From UHGV virus genome UHGV-0259093: a DNA stretch of 32,840 bases. The stretch is one strand, 5' to 3'. The stretch comes from a virus. Of the stretch, positions 4,755 to 29,964 are shown piece after piece (the stretch's first letter is position 1; each line of letters opens with the position of its first letter). Position numbers and translations under genes: made by a program. A model generated the notes under the pieces. That model was not told the origin of the DNA. It saw only the letters and a list, made by a program, of their open reading frames with translations, and ran no database searches.

Positions 4755-4929
4755 TATTCACCACCCTGTGTATTATCGTTCTGTACTAATAGTTTGGGTA
4801 GGTCATCCCATGAATGATTACCAGACTTAAGAATTAAAAACCCTTCGGCCTCTGCCATTTCTACATCGTCTGCTGTGAGCATTAAGCCCATAATCTGACC
4901 TTCTGAATTATAGATAAAATTGTACATTT
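4755..4929 (-). CDS. small hypothetical protein (57 aa, below the ORF-track cutoff)
   Basis: My translation MYNFIYNSEGQIMGLMLTADDVEMAEAEGFLILKSGNHSWDDLPKLLVQNDNTQGGE. RBS taggag upstream of ATG at 4929. Stop abuts the ATG of the next gene. Confidence 0.35.
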
Positions 4930-20962: not shown

Positions 20963-22868
20963 GTCTAGACGGACGTACTACACGACCTGTTTTTACTGGT
21001 GCTGGTTCTTCTTTATTTACTTCTTTATTTAGTCCTTTCTCTTTTTGTTTGGCGTTGAATTCGCGTAGTTTGCGGAATGGCTGATTACCTAATTTAGATA
21101 GATACCAGTGGAAACATATTAAAGCGTAGTTAAGACAATCAAGCGTTTCATTCCTTGCTGAACTAATTTTCTTAACCCATACCCACGCCCCAGCTTTAAT
21201 AACTCTCTTCTCACTTGATACCTGAATAAAGTAATCATCTGGTACTGAATGGCTGAAGTGTATTTGTACTTCACTACTATTACCACTATCCGATACTGCA
21301 CGGTTTAATAGTTGTCTAATATTACTTTTCCCTAAGTTTACGTTTAGGTTTATTAGACTATGACCACCAGCCGTAGAGCCTTTAAAGAGTGGGTTAGTAT
21401 TTGAAGTACCGCCCTTGATTGGTTTAAAGATTGTCGATGCACTACAATAGCGATATACCGTACTGGTTGCGTTACCGTTCGAACTATCTACAAAACCTGC
21501 AAGTACTTTAAGTGGTTTACCGGATACGGTTTTAAAGTTAGTTTGTGAAAATGCTGTTAGCTTATTCCATGCGGGAGCCTCTATTTTAGTACAGTCAATG
21601 CTATGAATACTGCGATGATCGAGTACATAAAGATTCTTTTCACTTATTCCTAACGTTGTTACTTCAAGGCGGTCTAACTGTTGGTCTACACCTAGTACGA
21701 TTCCTTGACAGTCATCCGGCACGGTATCTATATCTATTGAACTATCACGTAGGTTTTCAAGTAATACTAAATCATGATCGGTATTCTCTTTATCAATATA
21801 AGGAAGTCCTAAGACGTTATTGTAGAATGAGGCTAGATCAAATGTATAATGTGCTTCGGCAAAATCCTGTACTATTGATTTGATCGAGTTAATCGGGGAG
21901 TATAAACGGCTAATATGATACCCCATGATATCCGTTACTTCTGGTACTGTAGCTATCCATTCACCCTTACGTACCATTCTTACACGTTCGGCTTCTGTGA
22001 TTACATTATTACACTTAGGACATTGTAGTTTTGCTGTCTCTGCATCTGGAATGCGACGACGACCACCATCAATAATTTTCCAGTCGAATTTAACATTTTC
22101 AAATACTAATTCATGTGCATGATCACAATGTGGGCAAGGTACGTAGAACTTCTGTTTATTACTTTGCTCGTACTGCTGAGTGATTAAATCATTCTCATCA
22201 AGTGGTGTAGAACAAACCATAATAAGAGGGTTGCTAAAAGCCTTTGTACGCTGTTCTGCTAGCTTTAGTGGGTTCCCTTCATCACCATCTGCATCTACGT
22301 TAGATATTTCGTCAAGAAAGATACGGGGGGCTGTCAAGCCTCGCAAATTCGCACTACTACCCAATGTTAGGAAGTACGTAAAAGTACCGTCTAAGTTTTG
22401 TTGTGTCTTATCATTATTAGTATAGTTTTTATCATTCTTATTACTGACTAGATTTTTAAGTACTGCACATGCTTCGATTACTGATTGCCATTTACCAGTA
22501 CGAAACTTACTAGTAGTGCTGGCTGTTGCACCTGCGAAAATTAGATTGCTTGGATCATTTGCGAGGAAGTAGTACATACTATTCTGTAAAACTGTTGTTT
22601 TGAGAAGTTGTGCACTGCTCATCAAAACTATTTTTCTAATTCTTGGATTAGTAATGTCATTTATGGGCTTGTGCTGAAAGGAAAATAACTTTACGCGTTG
22701 TCCTTGTAGTTCCCCATCCGGGAATACTAAATTATTCTCTACCCATTCCGCTGGTAGTTGTCGCTTCGGAGGTAGGATCGACTTCGCCGCCCTCGTTAGT
22801 ACCTTCATCATCTTCTGGTAGTTGTTCATCCGTGTATGTTCCTTCATATTCATAGCTACCAATTTCAT
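20940..22868 (-). CDS. terminase large subunit, GpA family
   Basis: 642 aa. PCPHCDHAHELVF, GVDQQLDRLEVTTLG and ARNETLDCLNYALI parallel lambda gpA ACPHCGEEQYLKF, GIDSQLDRYEMRVWG and RRNEALDCFVYALA. Several in-frame Met near the N-terminus, so the true start may be later than 22868. Confidence 0.9.
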   Translation of the reverse strand: MKLVAMNMKEHTRMNNYQKMMKVLTRAAKSILPPKRQLPAEWVENNLVFPDGELQGQRVKLFSFQHKPINDITNPRIRKIVLMSSAQLLKTTVLQNSMYYFLANDPSNLIFAGATASTTSKFRTGKWQSVIEACAVLKNLVSNKNDKNYTNNDKTQQNLDGTFTYFLTLGSSANLRGLTAPRIFLDEISNVDADGDEGNPLKLAEQRTKAFSNPLIMVCSTPLDENDLITQQYEQSNKQKFYVPCPHCDHAHELVFENVKFDWKIIDGGRRRIPDAETAKLQCPKCNNVITEAERVRMVRKGEWIATVPEVTDIMGYHISRLYSPINSIKSIVQDFAEAHYTFDLASFYNNVLGLPYIDKENTDHDLVLLENLRDSSIDIDTVPDDCQGIVLGVDQQLDRLEVTTLGISEKNLYVLDHRSIHSIDCTKIEAPAWNKLTAFSQTNFKTVSGKPLKVLAGFVDSSNGNATSTVYRYCSASTIFKPIKGGTSNTNPLFKGSTAGGHSLINLNVNLGKSNIRQLLNRAVSDSGNSSEVQIHFSHSVPDDYFIQVSSEKRVIKAGAWVWVKKISSARNETLDCLNYALICFHWYLSKLGNQPFRKLREFNAKQKEKGLNKEVNKEEPAPVKTGRVVRPSRRGGGFFK

Positions 22869-23463
22869 TTAATTGATCATCTATTTTTTCCTGTAGTTTG
22901 ATTTTTAATTCTAATGCGTCTGCTGATTCGAATAATTCAACATAACTTGACGCGGGAATACTTCTTAATACTTGGCGTAGTTGGTAGAAGTATTGGGATA
23001 AAGTTTGCTGTACTACTGCTACTGGTATTAGCTCGCCGGATTGCTGACGTAATTCCATTTCTTTAATATCAGCTTCTGCTTCTAACTTACGTAGTGTTGC
23101 TTTTTGTATTTGGCCTTTTGTATCACCGCTTCTTAGTGGTTCGATTACGTTTGCAAGTAACCAATCGTCAACTAATTTCTTAGGCCAGGTGATATCTAAA
23201 CCTTTACCAGACCATATACGGCTAACAGTAGAATGCTCTACGCCGAAACGATCCGCGATTTCTTGCCACGTGTAGCGGGTTCCATCGTCTTTAATTTTTG
23301 CCATTTTGTTTAGTCCTTGTTTAGTACAATAAACCTGTACTTTCCTTTTATTTCGTTTTGTTTGTTTTCGATTAGAAATCCCACGAATTTTAAATACAAT
23401 TCGCGGCGAAAACTCGATTTTTTTGTTCTCAATTAGAGAACCTAAAGTTAAAACTTCACTCAC
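22732..23463 (-). CDS. terminase small subunit with HTH; likely true start at ATG 23304 (MAKIKDD...)
   Basis: YTWQEIADRFGVEHSTVSRIW helix-turn-helix, acidic C-terminus, directly upstream of the large terminase. The track start at 23463 is a GTG. aagga RBS precedes the internal ATG. Confidence 0.65.
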   Translation of the reverse strand: MSEVLTLGSLIENKKIEFSPRIVFKIRGISNRKQTKRNKRKVQVYCTKQGLNKMAKIKDDGTRYTWQEIADRFGVEHSTVSRIWSGKGLDITWPKKLVDDWLLANVIEPLRSGDTKGQIQKATLRKLEAEADIKEMELRQQSGELIPVAVVQQTLSQYFYQLRQVLRSIPASSYVELFESADALELKIKLQEKIDDQLNEIGSYEYEGTYTDEQLPEDDEGTNEGGEVDPTSEATTTSGMGRE

Positions 23464-23533: not shown

Positions 23534-24472
23534 ATGAAACACATAATCCAAACCAGAAGTGTTTTTAAGGATATCGAAGACTCTTTATTTAGTGAGTTGC
23601 ATTCAGCTAAGACAAGTATCAAAATCTGTGTTGCATGGATAAACTTTGAGCTTTTTGAAAATATATTATTATCTAAGGCTAAAGAAGGTGTTGAAGTTGA
23701 GATATTAGTTAATAATGATTATATCAATACAAAATTTCTTGATAAAATATCTGATAATATAAAACCATTAATTAATCTAATTAAAAACCCTATTAGTAAC
23801 CACTTAATGCATCATAAATTTTGTATCATTGATGATGAAGTTTTGATTACTGGCAGTTATAATTGGTCAAAAAGAGCACCATATCATTATGAAAATATAA
23901 TAATCATCCGTAATGATTTCAATCTAATAATGCAATTTAAACATGAGTTTGCAGATTTAAAATACATGGGTGCAATGCCAAGTACAGAATTTAATGCATT
24001 TAAAGTAACCAAAAATCTCAATAGATTTGTTGTTGGCACATATAGTTCATCTGTGGGGATATATGAAACCGTCACATTGCAGTTATGGGAAATTGATATT
24101 AACAACTTAACTTTTGAACGACATGGCGAAATGGATATCCCTTTCTTCAATTATTTATTAGATATTAATACTGATGATCATTATCTTATTGATGAAAAAG
24201 AAAGGTACATCGATCTATATGATCAAGAGCGTAGACAGATGGAGACTATCCAAAGTCATTTTAGAAGATTAAATTGTTCAATTCATGCTTATGGAACAGC
24301 AATAATAGCGAACGAGAGCGAATACCTTGAAGGTTATGAAGAGCCTATTCGTGTAATTCACTTCAATTGGATAGATATGCGATTAAGCAAAGTATTACCC
24401 TCTTCTTTGCCCGCAACTATGGAACTTGAAGGATTATGGCACGAAATATATGCTCCAAATGGATATATTTAA
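23534..24472 (+). CDS. phospholipase D-family (single HKD motif, Nuc-like) nuclease with an uncharacterised ~160-aa C-terminal domain
   Basis: HHKFCIIDDEVLITGSYNWSKRA is a canonical HxK(x4)D(x6)GSxN motif. RBS aagga 6 nt before the ATG. Markedly AT-rich. Confidence 0.75.
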   Translation: MKHIIQTRSVFKDIEDSLFSELHSAKTSIKICVAWINFELFENILLSKAKEGVEVEILVNNDYINTKFLDKISDNIKPLINLIKNPISNHLMHHKFCIIDDEVLITGSYNWSKRAPYHYENIIIIRNDFNLIMQFKHEFADLKYMGAMPSTEFNAFKVTKNLNRFVVGTYSSSVGIYETVTLQLWEIDINNLTFERHGEMDIPFFNYLLDINTDDHYLIDEKERYIDLYDQERRQMETIQSHFRRLNCSIHAYGTAIIANESEYLEGYEEPIRVIHFNWIDMRLSKVLPSSLPATMELEGLWHEIYAPNGYI

Positions 24473-24489
24473 ATAATATTCTATAATTA

Positions 24490-24864
24490 ATGAGGAACGG
24501 TATTATGTCTAATTATCCTATACCACTTAGCCTTGAATTTAATAGTCAAGATACTGCTAATATCATTTGTAGTTATCTAGAAAAAAATCATCAAGATTCT
24601 ATTTTAAAAACCATATTAAATATAGATTTGTCTTTTATTGATTATCGTGCACAATCTTCTAATTACTTTATAATTAATGACGTTGAATATATTGGAGATA
24701 ATAATTATATTTTATATTATAAAATAAACTACTACATTTATAATCTCTGTAAAGATATGGATATTGATGATGACTACGAGACTTCGATAAATTTTACATT
24801 GAATAATGGATTTTTAGTATTTGATATAATTGATTGTGAAAGAAATATATCAGATGAAATATAG
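24490..24864 (+). CDS. small acidic protein, partner of the PLD nuclease; likely start at ATG 24505
   Basis: RBS gagga 8 nt upstream of the second ATG (MSNYPIPL...). Asp/Glu-rich (DMDIDDDYETS, DIIDCERNISDEI). 32-nt gap after the PLD gene. Confidence 0.55.
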   Translation: MRNGIMSNYPIPLSLEFNSQDTANIICSYLEKNHQDSILKTILNIDLSFIDYRAQSSNYFIINDVEYIGDNNYILYYKINYYIYNLCKDMDIDDDYETSINFTLNNGFLVFDIIDCERNISDEI

Positions 24865-24928
24865 CCATATTTAATTATCACTTAAGGATTTCAACATCAG
24901 GATTTAAATTTTAATTATATATAATAGT

Positions 24929-24960
24929 AAAAGCCTAATACTCATCAGTAATAGGCTTTT
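24929..24960. terminator. bidirectional terminator between convergent genes
   Basis: 9-bp stem aaaagccta (24929-24937) / taggctttt (24952-24960), 14-nt loop, with A and T runs forming part of the stem ends. Confidence 0.55.
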
Positions 24961-24967
24961 ACCTAAA

Positions 24968-25387
24968 TTATAATTGATTCAATCGATAGATATTAGATGT
25001 ACTTGAGCCATCGCTATACACCTCTGATATAGTCAGTTTGTTTCCATCCACTTTGTATTTTACTACACTATCAGCCGGATCATTTCTCCAACGACCTGAG
25101 CTATCTGGATTGTTTGATGCCCACATAACTTGATCATCAATCAGTTTGCACTTGATAGCCCATCTTGTGCTGTCATCTTTACGTATGTAATGGACATAGG
25201 CTACATCAGATTGAATCTTATCAAGCTTCATTATTTTATGATCTCGCCCAAACATAGATGCAGCCGCCGCTTTGCAGATCTGACCAACATTAGCTTCCGC
25301 TGCGTAGAGTGAAGAACTGAACAATAATGGCACAATCACTAATAACTTTATCATCGCATATCGTCTCGTAGTAAAAATTAATTTCAC
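24968..25387 (-). CDS. secreted or periplasmic protein of unknown function
   Basis: Signal-peptide-like N-terminus (MIKLLVIVPLLFSSSLYAAEA). Start 2 nt after the stop of the HNH endonuclease gene, implying co-transcription. Confidence 0.55.
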   Translation of the reverse strand: MKLIFTTRRYAMIKLLVIVPLLFSSSLYAAEANVGQICKAAAASMFGRDHKIMKLDKIQSDVAYVHYIRKDDSTRWAIKCKLIDDQVMWASNNPDSSGRWRNDPADSVVKYKVDGNKLTISEVYSDGSSTSNIYRLNQL

Positions 25388-25388
25388 C

Positions 25389-26114
25389 TTATTTCCTTAA
25401 TAACTTTTTTAATTCCTCAACTGTCTTCATTTCTTTTCCAATATGAATCATTGCATGACAGTTTGCACATAAAGGTATAAGATCTTCAATTGGGTCAATC
25501 TTATAGCGTTTACCAATAGTATGTAGTGGCACTATATGATGAACATGAATATAATTTTTTCCGTGACTTCCATACACTTCTTCAAAATTAAAACCACAGA
25601 CACCACAACTCAAACCATGTTTATCGATACATTCTTTTCTAGCCTTTGGATCTCTCTCATAGTACGTAGCAATCCTTTGATGCTTTTCACCTTCATAGTA
25701 TTCACTTTCTATTTCAGGTGTGAATGAATAGTAATCTTCATCGGTGGCATACCAATCTCCATCTTTTTTAGTAAGATATTTTCGTACTATTTTCTTTTCA
25801 AAATGTTTAATCCTAGCAGCACCATTTTCAGTTGTTTTCTCATGCCTAGTCTGGCTAAAGGTGAAAAGACTATACCCTTCATGTAAAATTTTATCTATGT
25901 GTTCGATAGATTGTGTATAACCATTTTTTTTGTGTCCATTTACATTTTCACGCCAACTGCTAGCCAAGATTAAAACTTTCTTACCATCATCTGATCTAAG
26001 ATCTTCCCAAGCTCCAAAAATTATTTTTTTGTTGATCTCATCAATAAATGACCAACTCCAGTTATCATTTTTACATGTAGCACCCAAAGAACGCATGAAC
26101 TCTGTTCGGGACAT
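25389..26114 (-). CDS. HNH-family endonuclease of restriction type (COG3183-like) with an uncharacterised N-terminal domain
   Basis: C-terminus ERDPKARKECIDKHGLSCGVCGF...IHVHHIVPL...DLIPLCANCHAMIH carries the Cys pair and His/Asn-type HNH motif of predicted HNH restriction endonucleases. Confidence 0.75.
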   Translation of the reverse strand: MSRTEFMRSLGATCKNDNWSWSFIDEINKKIIFGAWEDLRSDDGKKVLILASSWRENVNGHKKNGYTQSIEHIDKILHEGYSLFTFSQTRHEKTTENGAARIKHFEKKIVRKYLTKKDGDWYATDEDYYSFTPEIESEYYEGEKHQRIATYYERDPKARKECIDKHGLSCGVCGFNFEEVYGSHGKNYIHVHHIVPLHTIGKRYKIDPIEDLIPLCANCHAMIHIGKEMKTVEELKKLLRK

Positions 26115-26151
26115 TTTTCATCCTTAAAATATGTGACCTACATCACATGAA

Positions 26152-26232
26152 ACTATCGACTGTAGGAGGTTTCTATCCTTCGTAAAGCTAACAAACCTAC
26201 CCAAAGTAGATAGAAACCTCCTACAATCGATA
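26152..26232. repeat. 25-bp inverted repeat (24/25 match) with 31-bp spacer in a divergent intergenic region
   Basis: ctatcgactgtaggaggtttctatc (26152-26176) versus gatagaaacctcctacaatcgatag (26208-26232). Each arm contains aggagg. Confidence 0.6.
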
Positions 26233-26317
26233 GTGTATGTGTGTTCCTTTTGATGGTAAAGTATTAATATAGTGTTACCTAGACTGGGTGTACATATAAT
26301 CAATATTTGGGTTTGAT

Positions 26318-27028
26318 ATGCTTAATCTCACTAAATGTAATTTACTTTTGATCGGCACTGTAATAACTCTATTACTGATAGCTATTCTTGTAGGTATAAA
26401 AATACTATTCTCCGATTCTAATCCAGATCTAGGCAGCTTAGCAGATTGGATCAGTTCTGTATCCGCAATAGGGACTCTTGGTGTTGCCTGGTTAGCTTAT
26501 AGTAAAGCTGATGACTACATTGACAAAAAAGCTTCGGAAAGAGGAATTGATATCCTTGTCAATATGGTAACTGAATCATTCGTTGCTTATTTCAACTCAC
26601 TAAATGAAACTAATTTCCATGCTTCAAAACTTGAAAATAAAATGATATTGATTGGCTTGGTTGATGAAAAAGTAGATTGCAATATTGAACTACAATCATT
26701 AAGAGAAAAAATCATAACTCTCTTCGAAAATAGTCATCAAATAGACAAAGATTTTATAAAAATGAAAATAATGAAAATATCAAAACCCAGTGATATTTTC
26801 TACGATCCAGTAACTAGCGATGATACATTGCAAGCGTTAAAATTAGCATTTCATAAACTGAACACTGAAATTTGTGAGAATGAAAATCAATACAACATTA
26901 ATAATGATTTACTTAGCGAAAATATCAACTTTATTAAAAACACTACCGAAAAGTTAGCCCATGATATTCGCAAACAGTTCTTTACCTCGCCGAATACTTA
27001 TAAAGATTATTTTGGAAATCTGTCTTAA
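26318..27028 (+). CDS. two-TM membrane protein of unknown function, paralog B of the 549-1289 protein
   Basis: N-terminal helix LLLIGTVITLLLIAILVGI followed by DLGSLADWISSVSAIGTLGVAWLAY. Perfect TATAAT at 26294-26299 upstream. Confidence 0.7.
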   Translation: MLNLTKCNLLLIGTVITLLLIAILVGIKILFSDSNPDLGSLADWISSVSAIGTLGVAWLAYSKADDYIDKKASERGIDILVNMVTESFVAYFNSLNETNFHASKLENKMILIGLVDEKVDCNIELQSLREKIITLFENSHQIDKDFIKMKIMKISKPSDIFYDPVTSDDTLQALKLAFHKLNTEICENENQYNINNDLLSENINFIKNTTEKLAHDIRKQFFTSPNTYKDYFGNLS

Positions 27029-27073
27029 ATTATACGCTATCAAATATTCCATCAACATAAACAAGGAAAGTAG

Positions 27074-27772
27074 ATGACTACTCTCACTAGAACTTATAAT
27101 TTACCAAATGAGCTAGTTGAACATTTTTCAAATAACATTGTCTATTTCGAAAAACTTTTGTCTAAGGATTTTTCTGACTTAAATGTTAATGTAGCACCAG
27201 AAGACATTAAGAAAATAGAAAAATCTTTCGAAGTATCACATAGAATACGTGATTTCGAAATCAATCTGTATTGGCAAAGACTGAACTTCCTTTGGGCCAT
27301 TACAGCATTGCTATTTGCTGGATGGGGAACATTGATCTTTAAAATCATCGAATTCAATGGAGGGGAAGCACCTTATATTATATTTGCCGCCTTATCATTT
27401 CTCTCACTTATAGGTGGGATTGTAACTATATTCACAAGCTTTATCATTGAGGCAGGTAAGCATTGGCAAAAGGTTTGGGAGTTTCATGTTCACGCTCTTG
27501 AACCTTTTGTATCAGGTCATTTATATGCAATTCAGTTTTCTTATAAAAATAAAAAAAAGGCATCTATAAGTAGAAGCGTAGAAACTTTCAATTATGCTTT
27601 GCTGTTTCTTTGGGCATGTTCAGCAGTATTCGCCGCAATCATCCCTTCACAAATAGGGAACGGTCTTGCAGGCATTATCCAATTAGTTATTTCTCTTCTT
27701 ATAGTTGGTGCTTTTGTTTATATACGCAACTCTGTTACTAAAAAGGAGTCTATTAAAATTCAGCTTGATTAA
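27074..27772 (+). CDS. four-TM integral membrane protein of unknown function
   Basis: Hydrophobic segments FLWAITALLFAGWGTLIF, YIIFAALSFLSLIGGIVTIFTSFII, FNYALLFLWACSAVFAAII, GIIQLVISLLIVGAFVYI. Follows paralog B by 45 nt. Confidence 0.65.
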   Translation: MTTLTRTYNLPNELVEHFSNNIVYFEKLLSKDFSDLNVNVAPEDIKKIEKSFEVSHRIRDFEINLYWQRLNFLWAITALLFAGWGTLIFKIIEFNGGEAPYIIFAALSFLSLIGGIVTIFTSFIIEAGKHWQKVWEFHVHALEPFVSGHLYAIQFSYKNKKKASISRSVETFNYALLFLWACSAVFAAIIPSQIGNGLAGIIQLVISLLIVGAFVYIRNSVTKKESIKIQLD

Positions 27773-28525: not shown

Positions 28526-28764
28526 TGCGTGGCGACTTCAAGAGACTTTGAATAACTGACTTTCAGTAGTATCTCTTGAGTACTTACACCTACTGGAGTG
28601 AGCGAAAGCGAGAAAAGCACGCTTGCGGGTTTTCGATGCGATAGCGAGAAAAACGCAATGTGATACCCTTATGTGTTTTTTATAGGGATAATAGATAAGA
28701 CGCTTTAGCGGATTAGCTATTATCCCTCTGAATAATAGATATGGCGTATTTTATATCTGTTTTT

Positions 28765-29478: not shown

Positions 29479-29964
29479 TTAGTTGTCTTTTGCAACCTTT
29501 GTATATGTCTGTCTATGTGTACTTCTATTGTACTTTTCATTCATGAATAGCGTGATATTGATACATGACATTCCACCAGTGTATAACGCCTTTACTTCAT
29601 CTTTTTGTACTGGTGTTAGACGTGGTTCATTTTGTTTCTTACGTACTGCCTTACATGAATTTTCACTATATGTAATCCACTGCAAATTAGAAATATTGTT
29701 GTCTCGTTTATCACTATTGATATTATCTACAACTAATCTTTTATTTGTTTGGGGTTTACTTAGAAATGTTTCTGCTACGAGTCTGTGTGTCTCTATCGGA
29801 TATGATTTAGATTTCCCATCCTCATAAACAGTTAAAGTAACTTTATAGTACCCATTACTTTTACTATAACTCTGTGTTAGATAATTACCCGTTTTAGTAT
29901 TGCGTACTTCTCCGTTACTACTTACTTCATAATTTACATATTGTGTTTGTTTCCATAATGTCAT
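29479..29964 (-). CDS. HNH homing endonuclease (NUMOD4-like N-terminus plus HNH_3 motif)
   Basis: YEVSSNGEVRNTKTGNYL and HRLVAETFLSKPQTNKRLVVDNINSDKRDNNISNLQWITYSEN are the hallmark motifs of phage-encoded HNH homing endonucleases. Confidence 0.8.
   Translation of the reverse strand: MTLWKQTQYVNYEVSSNGEVRNTKTGNYLTQSYSKSNGYYKVTLTVYEDGKSKSYPIETHRLVAETFLSKPQTNKRLVVDNINSDKRDNNISNLQWITYSENSCKAVRKKQNEPRLTPVQKDEVKALYTGGMSCINITLFMNEKYNRSTHRQTYTKVAKDN

Follow-up and report, generated by a model that had tools for sequence, protein, structure and literature searches.

A predicted promoter coupled to a covarying hairpin with an invariant loop core borders the accessory-gene hotspot of a temperate phage family

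Introduction

The 5'-terminal stem-loops of the ompA/papA type in Escherichia coli, reportedly described by Emory, Bouvet and Belasco in 1992, are said to stabilise the mRNAs that carry them. In phage lambda, OOP is a 77-nt cis-antisense RNA, which is convergent with cII, overlaps its 3' end and is ended by a terminator hairpin. Temperate phages also carry morons, which according to Juhala and Hendrix in 2000 are reportedly accessory genes with a promoter and a terminator of their own. The put RNAs of HK022, about 70 nt long with two stem-loops, make RNA polymerase resist pausing and termination; they lie downstream of an early promoter and act on the zinc-binding domain of the beta' subunit, and putL is situated just downstream of PL (PMC9378689). 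Here we describe an element that shares features with each of these systems, a long inverted repeat at positions 26152-26234 of UHGV virus genome UHGV-0259093, upstream of an HNH endonuclease gene; "the window" below means the whole 32,840-nt stretch that was analysed. We propose, with moderate confidence, that the repeat and an attached promoter form one module, in which the promoter heads a transcript with a 5'-terminal RNA hairpin; this hairpin would act in cis as a leader, would become a cis-antisense RNA in the basal layout of the phage family, and in the window would serve expression of the HNH operon.

Results

A repeat search of the window places the arms of the element at 26152-26177 and 26209-26234. 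Each arm is 26 nt long, 25 of the 26 positions are complementary (96%) and a spacer of 31 nt lies between them; the repeat ranks first among the short-range inverted repeats across the 32.8-kb window, where the arm sequence occurs once as a pair and has no further copies. The initial annotation had given the repeat as 24/25 at 26152-26232 and had held it to be too long for chance; the repeat itself stands, far beyond chance, and its outer end had been drawn 1-2 nt short. When folded as RNA, the minus strand of the repeat reaches -57.4 kcal/mol (z = -10.3 relative to 200 dinucleotide shuffles, which give -25.4 +/- 3.1), and the plus strand reaches -47.2 kcal/mol (z = -7.7). The sole mismatch between the arms reads C.A on the plus strand and G:U on the minus strand. 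Read on the minus strand, which is the sense strand of the HNH gene, the repeat search and the folding give a 5' arm at 26209-26234 (formerly the right arm), a loop at 26178-26208 and a 3' arm at 26152-26177 (formerly the left arm). The loop, formerly the spacer, holds a 16-nt core, TTGGGTAGGTTTGTTA, at 26189-26204 on the minus strand, which is present in a single copy in the window and as an exact 16-mer in six independent lineages. AGGAGG does occur in both arms, as had been noted, on the plus strand in the left arm and on the minus strand in the right arm, and the string aacctaccc is indeed found in the spacer, at 26194-26202, where it belongs to the one stretch of the element with strong conservation. 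For the flanking genes the description holds too, namely the HNH gene on the minus strand and a divergent membrane-protein gene on the plus strand.

Near-identical prophages are present in Pseudocitrobacter faecalis DSM 27453 and in one IMG/VR isolate genome, and are too close to the window to be informative. More distant homologues of the HNH gene were informative. In two related loci (denoted by L numbers), L063 and L064, which carry an HNH protein of 93% and 72% amino acid identity, the hairpin lies at the same place and its arms are altered yet paired, through compensatory changes: GTAGG/CCTAC of the window becomes GTTGG/CCAAC in L063, and the stem of L064 is mostly rewritten. The loop core is identical in all three. 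Since the core within the spacer is identical while the arms change, the conserved part of the element is, in these alignments, the stretch previously treated as a spacer and not the arms. The element is thus retained in close relatives that have the HNH gene, and the objection that the initial annotation had anticipated, its absence from such relatives, does not hold. The AGGAGG motif is limited to the lineage of the window and L063, is absent from L064 and all others, and is thus incidental.

Across the family, the core has the consensus GGGT(A/T)GGTTTGTT with at most 1-3 changes in about 40 loci. Through an alignment of the proteins of the small-terminase gene (terS), 80 related loci were drawn from IMG/VR; the core occurs with no more than one change in 31 of them, and a sequence profile retrieves 7 more diverged cores (GGGGTTTGGTTTGTT, GGGTGGTTTGTT); among the 52 loci having at least 5.5 kb of upstream sequence, 28 carry a strict core. 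Apart from a single exception, the 32 strict cores share the strand of terS and precede that gene by 1.5-4.8 kb (median 2.8 kb). Hairpins with 12 or more pairs enclose 32 of the 33 distinct cores, which fall into 24 lineages with less than 75% flank identity, and the arm sequences are wholly different between lineages with pairing retained. In most lineages the 5' arm is C-rich and the 3' arm is G/U-rich. The stems measure 13-29 bp across the family; those of the window, L063, L064 and L265 reach 21-29 bp, and those of most relatives have 13-17 bp with bulges, where an RNase III processing site would take about 20 bp or more of near-perfect double-stranded RNA. The loop has 31 nt in the window and 20-30 nt elsewhere. 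Among the phages that share the core, small-terminase identity is only about 35%.

In L074 and L093, this core and promoter stand before genes other than HNH, and in L078, too, the core precedes an unrelated gene. The E. coli homologue of the HNH gene (75.5% nucleotide identity, in an island beside ybiT) has no such hairpin upstream, and the element is therefore not a property of the HNH gene. Downstream of that E. coli homologue there is a repeat that shares ATCGATTGT with the window arm; it was rejected as a chance resemblance, being an ordinary terminator with a T-run and no core. The 16-mer matches listed in metagenome contigs include at least one new lineage (L093) and a duplicate of L078, the rest being mostly chance matches in genes, and a scan of viral contigs with the promoter pattern returned 119 matches, of which 3 were real and the others chance.

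The stem was examined further with a covariance model. The stem was missed by RNAalifold run on a plain MAFFT alignment, in which the arms were mis-registered; a structure of 13 pairs was specified by hand instead, and the model was built on it. The model has 44 matches, of which 43 share orientation; paired cells amount to 89.1% in its alignment, and 12 of the 13 modelled pairs have changes on both sides. Compensatory cells number 83 against 22.6 +/- 3.5 in shuffles, and the covariation score is 0.472 against 0.196 +/- 0.014 (0/500 shuffles reach the observed value in either case), in an alignment that was fitted to the model, so that the counts lean towards the modelled structure. Sliding the 3' partners by 1-3 columns lowers the pairing to 37-54%. 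The raw sequences agree with these counts, as does a chimera test, in which hairpins made of their own arms average -31.6 kcal/mol and the average is -19.7 kcal/mol for chimeras whose 5' and 3' flanks come from different lineages. A covarying helix beyond both shuffled and slid controls, as in conserved structured RNAs, is thus found in this model-fitted alignment.

The pairs also differ between the two strands. On the terS/HNH-sense strand, the stems of the 24 lineages contain 462 Watson-Crick pairs, 39 G:U pairs and 2 single A.C mismatches, and in 17 of the 24 lineages its fold is more stable than that of the complementary strand (Wilcoxon p = 0.027). Such an excess of G:U over A.C would not arise from a double-stranded protein-binding site or from a symmetric cruciform, and identifies the sense (HNH/terS) strand as the one that folds. 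RNA is the simplest reading of the folding molecule, although folded single-stranded DNA tolerates G:T as well, so that the asymmetry gives the strand and not the molecule. Of the options raised by the initial annotation, a large RNA hairpin is the one favoured by the compensatory stem changes across about 40 loci and by the G:U pattern that marks the minus strand.

A promoter-like sequence accompanies the hairpin. On the minus strand of the window, a -35-like block, TACTTTACC, lies at 26255-26263, with its TTTACC hexamer at 26260-26255, within the exact 12-mer TACTTTACCATC (26252-26263); a -10-like hexamer, TACACT, at 26232-26237 follows TTTACC at a distance of 17 nt. Of 40 elements, 26 carry ACTTTACCA at the same relative place as this block, followed by 17-18 nonconserved nt and by TA(C/A/T)A(C/A)T, immediately upstream of the hairpin, and most of the remaining elements have TATACT, TATAAT or TACAAT at that place. 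A hexamer spacing of 16-18 nt, a fixed position and a drifting spacer are what characterises promoters of the sigma70 type, and the predicted promoter of these elements shows all three. In about 40 instances, a distance of at most 7 nt (about -4 to +7) separates the base of the stem from the end of the -10 hexamer, as read by eye, an automated distance script having been unreliable. Because transcription usually starts 6-8 nt after the hexamer, a stem within 7 nt implies a transcript that would start in or at the stem, with no single-stranded 5' tail. So tight a bound would be hard to explain unless promoter and hairpin work together.

The genes that follow the module vary. Co-oriented genes begin about 20-250 nt past the hairpin in the window, L209, L203, L230, L270/277, L093 and L276; co-oriented cargo includes the HNH gene (window, L063, L064) and genes for secreted or membrane proteins (L074, L093, L270). 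Convergent genes come next in 24 of 41 instances and end within about 100 nt of the 3' arm; an OLD-type ATPase-nuclease gene in L231 is an example of convergent cargo. In at least 15 instances, the stop codon that abuts the hairpin belongs to ORF-X, a conserved opposite-strand gene of about 100 aa (phrog_2100, no Pfam; for example L219:3457-3768 on the minus strand, convergent with the hairpin module), and the distance from this stop to the hairpin is 2-12 nt in 15 of the 24 convergent instances. A canonical LexA box, CTGT-N8-ACAG, lies 33-56 nt upstream of the start in 25 of 27 copies of ORF-X, which makes it probable that ORF-X is SOS-controlled; it is a candidate antirepressor of the prophage family. 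In this basal arrangement, the module is directed at the 3' end of the convergent ORF-X and has no terminator behind its hairpin, and in other phages cargo is found between the hairpin and ORF-X or terS. In the window, neither ORF-X nor its LexA box was found, and the order is hairpin, CRP-like palindrome, ribosome-binding site, HNH gene, 139-aa gene and terminator-like repeat. Taken across the family, the module is a portable one, shared by temperate phages with lambda-type (GpA) terminases, standing at the border of an accessory-gene hotspot and pointing to the packaging genes.

First after the element comes the HNH endonuclease gene (25389-26114, minus strand), which matches Pfam HNH (3.6e-08) and, in PADLOC, mREase_IV (1.6e-09; type IV restriction-like), and has its ribosome-binding site, AAGGAT, at 26120-26125. 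The second gene, listed as an open reading frame at 24968-25387 (minus strand), is predicted to encode a secreted protein of 139 aa and stands in the same order after HNH in L063. An inverted-repeat search finds a repeat after the 139-aa gene, at 24927-24962, which is a likely bidirectional terminator. The palindrome ATGTGA-N6-TCACAT at 26131-26148, located downstream of the hairpin and ahead of the HNH ribosome-binding site, agrees at every position with the CRP core TGTGA-N6-TCACA; it is kept as GTGAT-N4-ATCAC in the HNH-linked L005, L063 and L064, is absent from the versions without HNH, and could be a site for CRP or another regulator, or a small RNA hairpin.

On the divergent side, outside the element, lie a gene for a 236-aa membrane protein (26318-27028, plus strand) and a gene for an 8xMP-family (Pfam) protein (27074-27772, plus strand). 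This neighbour is not constant, as L063 has a different, 304-aa gene there. A recurrent accessory pair in these phages consists of a membrane protein with the motif ...DW(F/I)SA..GT...A..AY(R/K)(K/Q)AP.W and an 8xMP-family (PF24838) protein, and is found at 26318-27772 (plus strand) in the window, 1847-2584 in L063, 2036-2830 in L064, 4051-5577 in L074, 1272-2695 in L078 and 4187-5675 in L231; its order and copy number vary, and it always adjoins the hairpin module. The element and these genes belong to a low-GC island at about 23.5-27.8 kb (GC 0.28-0.33), directly upstream of the small and large terminase genes, of which the large one is lambda GpA-like. On the other side of the 139-aa gene, a gene for a PLD-family nuclease-like protein (312 aa; PLDc_2 5e-20, with weak PADLOC matches to MkoC, DpdK and DrmC) and a 124-aa gene occupy 23534-24864 on the plus strand; they run against the packaging genes, converge on the 139-aa gene at the 24927-24962 repeat, and look like a candidate pair of defence cargo genes.

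Close to terS, a block of the form (GGTACTCC...)CGAGTTTTCGSC is found about 90-110 nt upstream of the gene start in 5/5 divergent lineages compared. Its window copy, ...CGAGTTTTCGCCGCGAATTG..., lies at about 23380-23420 on the minus strand, and the block is a candidate for a cos site or for a late-promoter region. The listed terS open reading frame (22732-23463, GTG start) probably begins about 53 codons too early, with the homologous start near 23304. Beyond the accessory genes, a large imperfect palindrome at 28667-28744 (38-nt arms, 76% complementary, 2 nt apart) lies in a 400-bp gap between a 109-aa gene, which has a weak LexA-DNA-binding-like match, and a 179-aa gene, and may be a regulatory region of the early genes. 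These also include another HNH gene, at 29479-29964 (minus strand), which is unrelated to the first and of the NUMOD4 + HNH_3 homing-endonuclease type.

Discussion

The element has no counterpart in the collections that were searched. Rfam release 15 gave no match at gathering thresholds over the whole window; in E-value mode it returned generic hairpins only (miRNA precursors at no more than 27 bits against thresholds of 70-211, and traJ_5 at 18.9 against 50), and for two relatives it gave nothing meaningful. A BLAST search with the 161-nt module found no match in E. coli genomes, phage records or plasmids, and a literature search by the core sequence retrieved only human mitochondrial primers. 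The phage family is without a close cultured relative, the best match of its large terminase being 36% identical. The element is most likely a promoter-proximal structured RNA, or a phage cis-antisense RNA, that has not been described before.

Among the known systems, the 5'-terminal stabilisers of the ompA/papA type resemble the element in several respects: the hairpin is within a few nt of the predicted 5' end, the sequence of the stem is free as long as it pairs, and the element precedes unrelated genes. Those stabilisers need no specific loop, whereas here a G/U-rich core of 13-16 nt is nearly invariant, and the DNA repeat extends upstream of the likely start in three lineages. The resemblance to lambda OOP lies in the basal relatives, in which a small promoter would fire into the 3' end of a lysis-lysogeny-type regulator, the LexA-box gene ORF-X. 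However, the hairpin here is at the 5' end, no terminator comes after it, there is no sequence or Rfam relation to OOP, and the window is without ORF-X. As with the put RNAs of HK022, a structured RNA would lie just past a phage promoter and head a long string of genes, and a host partner such as RNA polymerase would explain the invariance of the loop; the element differs in being a single hairpin with a large loop and no sequence similarity to put, and is not of the put type. The moron model fits the HNH and 139-aa genes, which are placed behind their own promoter and before a terminator-like repeat (24927-24962) in a low-GC island (0.28-0.33) between core genes. In contrast to a moron promoter, the promoter and leader are family-wide rather than cassette-specific, and they persist without co-oriented cargo.

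We propose the following mechanism for the module, in which the conservation, the covariation, the strand asymmetry and the linkage and spacing of promoter and element are observed, and the firing of the promoter and its exact start site are predicted from the sequence. Transcription from TTTACC-17 nt-TACACT (26260-26232, minus strand) would start about 5-8 nt past the -10 hexamer, and the RNA would begin inside the stem or at its base, without a single-stranded 5' tail. The 5'-terminal hairpin would then shield the transcript from 5'-end-dependent decay, while a conserved partner (a host factor or RNA polymerase) would bind the invariant loop, UGGGUAGGUUUGUU, which is left exposed. The outcome would be expression of the downstream cargo from the prophage or, where the next gene is convergent, an antisense RNA against that gene; in the window, the module would head the string formed by the HNH and 139-aa genes. 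The invariant, G/U-rich loop suggests that the partner is conserved, and, as the loop is kept among phages with such divergent small terminases (about 35% identity), that it is a component of the host.

Several observations weigh against this proposal, in addition to the model-fitted alignment and the G:T tolerance of folded DNA given above. The promoter of the window agrees with the sigma70 consensus at 8/12 positions, below the 9/12 threshold of a simple scan, and is therefore not listed by such a scan. In L063, L064 and the window, the arm and the -10 hexamer have 3-4 nt in common (in the window, the last 3 nt of TACACT fall on the outer end of the 5' arm), so that only about 17-19 of the 26 bp would be in the RNA and the outer 7-9 bp or so would be excluded; the extra perfect outer pairs may result from templated quasi-palindrome correction or have a role at the level of DNA. 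The L218 copy is on the strand opposite terS, and a copy at 2784 in L078/L265 has the core without a stem. The convergent next gene in 24 of 41 instances means that promoting cargo expression cannot be the sole role of the module. Moreover, a 5' stabiliser needs no particular loop, and the invariance of the loop is unexplained by that role.

The hairpin with the UGGGU(A/U)GGUUUGUU loop might represent a new class of phage regulatory RNA that engages a conserved host machine and forms part of a lysis-lysogeny circuit, an extension of the proposal which we put forward tentatively and regard as unlikely. The RNA might, as a put-like nascent transcript with a single hairpin, modify RNA polymerase and allow read-through of the cargo and the convergent genes to the packaging genes; alternatively, the G/U-rich loop might act in trans as a seed on C/A-rich targets. 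By either route, the RNA would in basal phages counteract the SOS-controlled (LexA-box), antirepressor-like gene. The only candidate antisense target of the loop found in the window is an 11-nt perfect complement of the core, ACCUACCCAAA, at about 4793-4805 (minus strand) between a 1100-aa tail-fibre-like gene and a 97-aa gene, a match that is not significant given multiple k-mers.

We consider it quite unlikely that the element is instead a DNA site for recombination or cargo exchange, with the core displayed in a one-strand hairpin or cruciform at which cassettes insert or are swapped, either by a site-specific or HUH-type enzyme acting on folded single-stranded DNA (in the manner of attC) or by homologous recombination between the modules of co-infecting phages. 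Such a role would account for the way in which similarity between lineages that share one hairpin stops within 2-3 nt of the 3' arm (L222, L229, L231, L247, L248), with cargo of both orientations beginning just past it, and for the break in homology between L063 and the window just upstream of the -35-like block; in L093 and L265, moreover, two copies of the element in direct orientation bracket genes. The first of these boundaries is nevertheless to be expected in any case, as the gap between hairpin and stop codon in the basal arrangement is only 5-25 nt and tolerated insertions must land there anyway. Integron attC sites are likewise imperfect repeats of variable length and sequence at cassette boundaries, of which one folded strand matters, and attC and nick sites also combine a constant loop with stems that vary; the G:T-tolerant asymmetry, too, fits a folded strand of DNA. 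However, the arms contain no R''/R' (RYYYAAC/GTTRRRY) pair, their ends reading ACTATCG.../...CGATAGT in the window and TCACGCC.../...GGCGTGA in most relatives, conservation falls on the loop and not on the stem ends, and the element is coupled to a promoter, whose sigma70 spacing is unexpected of a recombination site, as is the shared orientation of 43 of the 44 copies. No recombinase or HUH gene is linked to the element, and a non-exhaustive scan of the window open reading frames found no tyrosine or IntI-type integrase; the only recombinase of the window is the large serine recombinase of the prophage, a 632-aa serine integrase encoded about 5 kb from the element. Serine recombinase sites have a 2-bp crossover centre, which the 31-nt spacer does not resemble. 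The idea that cargo was acquired here is thus half upheld, in so far as cargo differences start at the 3' base of the hairpin and bracketing copies occur in two phages, while site-specific recombination and a link to the serine recombinase found no support.

Given the basal arrangement, the hairpin might also be read as an insulator or terminator at a convergent junction, which would end or process transcripts coming from ORF-X or cargo and from upstream early genes, a role that we think very unlikely. The 24 of 41 convergent gene ends near the 3' arm, 15 of them of ORF-X, would suit such a role, as would hairpins that are stable and GC-rich in most lineages. On the other hand, in most lineages neither strand has a U-tract after the hairpin, and the window has none; the loops have 20-31 nt where 3-8 nt would be expected, and terminator scans do not call the hairpin. 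The wobble pattern, furthermore, favours the strand opposite the mRNA of the convergent gene, and the window has no convergent gene abutting the hairpin.

An operator for divergent HNH and membrane-gene promoters, with a dimer on the arms, or a supercoil-dependent cruciform that extrudes over the -10 hexamer, is highly improbable. The intergenic location between divergent genes fits this reading, as do the 3-nt overlap of the arm with the -10-like hexamer (window, L063, L064) and a repeat that is longer and more perfect than a promoter-started RNA would need. Conservation, however, is distributed in the opposite way to that needed by an operator, for the arms vary between lineages, in length (13-29 bp) as well as in sequence, and the non-palindromic spacer is invariant, so that the operator option of the initial annotation is not supported. 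The bias of G:U over A.C would not arise from a double-stranded binding site either, and the arm is found only here in the window, although operators usually have further copies nearby; the divergent neighbour, too, is inconstant. A packaging site (cos or pac) is scarcely credible, even though the phages have a GpA-like large terminase and the element is conserved in the family upstream of terS, as it lies anywhere between 1.5 and 4.8 kb from terS, with cargo in the interval, some phages carry two hairpin copies, and the (GGTACTCC...)CGAGTTTTCGSC block, about 90-110 nt upstream of terS, holds the usual place of cos.

Further candidates were tried and rejected. A MITE or other dispersed repeat is contradicted by the one copy in the window and by the genome of P. 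faecalis, where only one locus has both arms. A small open reading frame across the hairpin (STLGRFV frame) only mirrors the nucleotide conservation of the core, and no start codon or downstream sequence is conserved with it. Sequestration of a Shine-Dalgarno sequence by AGGAGG was dropped, the motif being absent from other lineages and no start codon following it. The core shares GGTAG with the ops site of RfaH (GGCGGTAGCGTG), together with the G(-10)/Y(-1)/G(+1) pause pattern, but variants of the core lose the A (GGGTTGG, GGGGTTTGG). By inspection, the consensus sequences of sigma54 and IHF sites do not fit the core.

Accessory hotspots of prophages are mined for defence systems, and little is known about how their cargo is expressed. 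The module of promoter, hairpin and loop marks such a hotspot in a temperate phage family of Gammaproteobacteria-type hosts, of which P. faecalis is the named host, and it sits ahead of genes for nucleases, secreted proteins and membrane proteins. If the promoter-headed hairpin that we propose acts as a stabilising or processive leader, it would explain how lysogens express diverse cargo, and would offer a sequence by which hotspots can be recognised. Should the loop bind RNA polymerase or be the seed of a small RNA, it would define a new class of regulatory RNA, and the element would then be part of a lysis-lysogeny circuit in a widespread, unstudied prophage family, in which the convergent LexA-box gene of the relatives points to a possible induction circuit.

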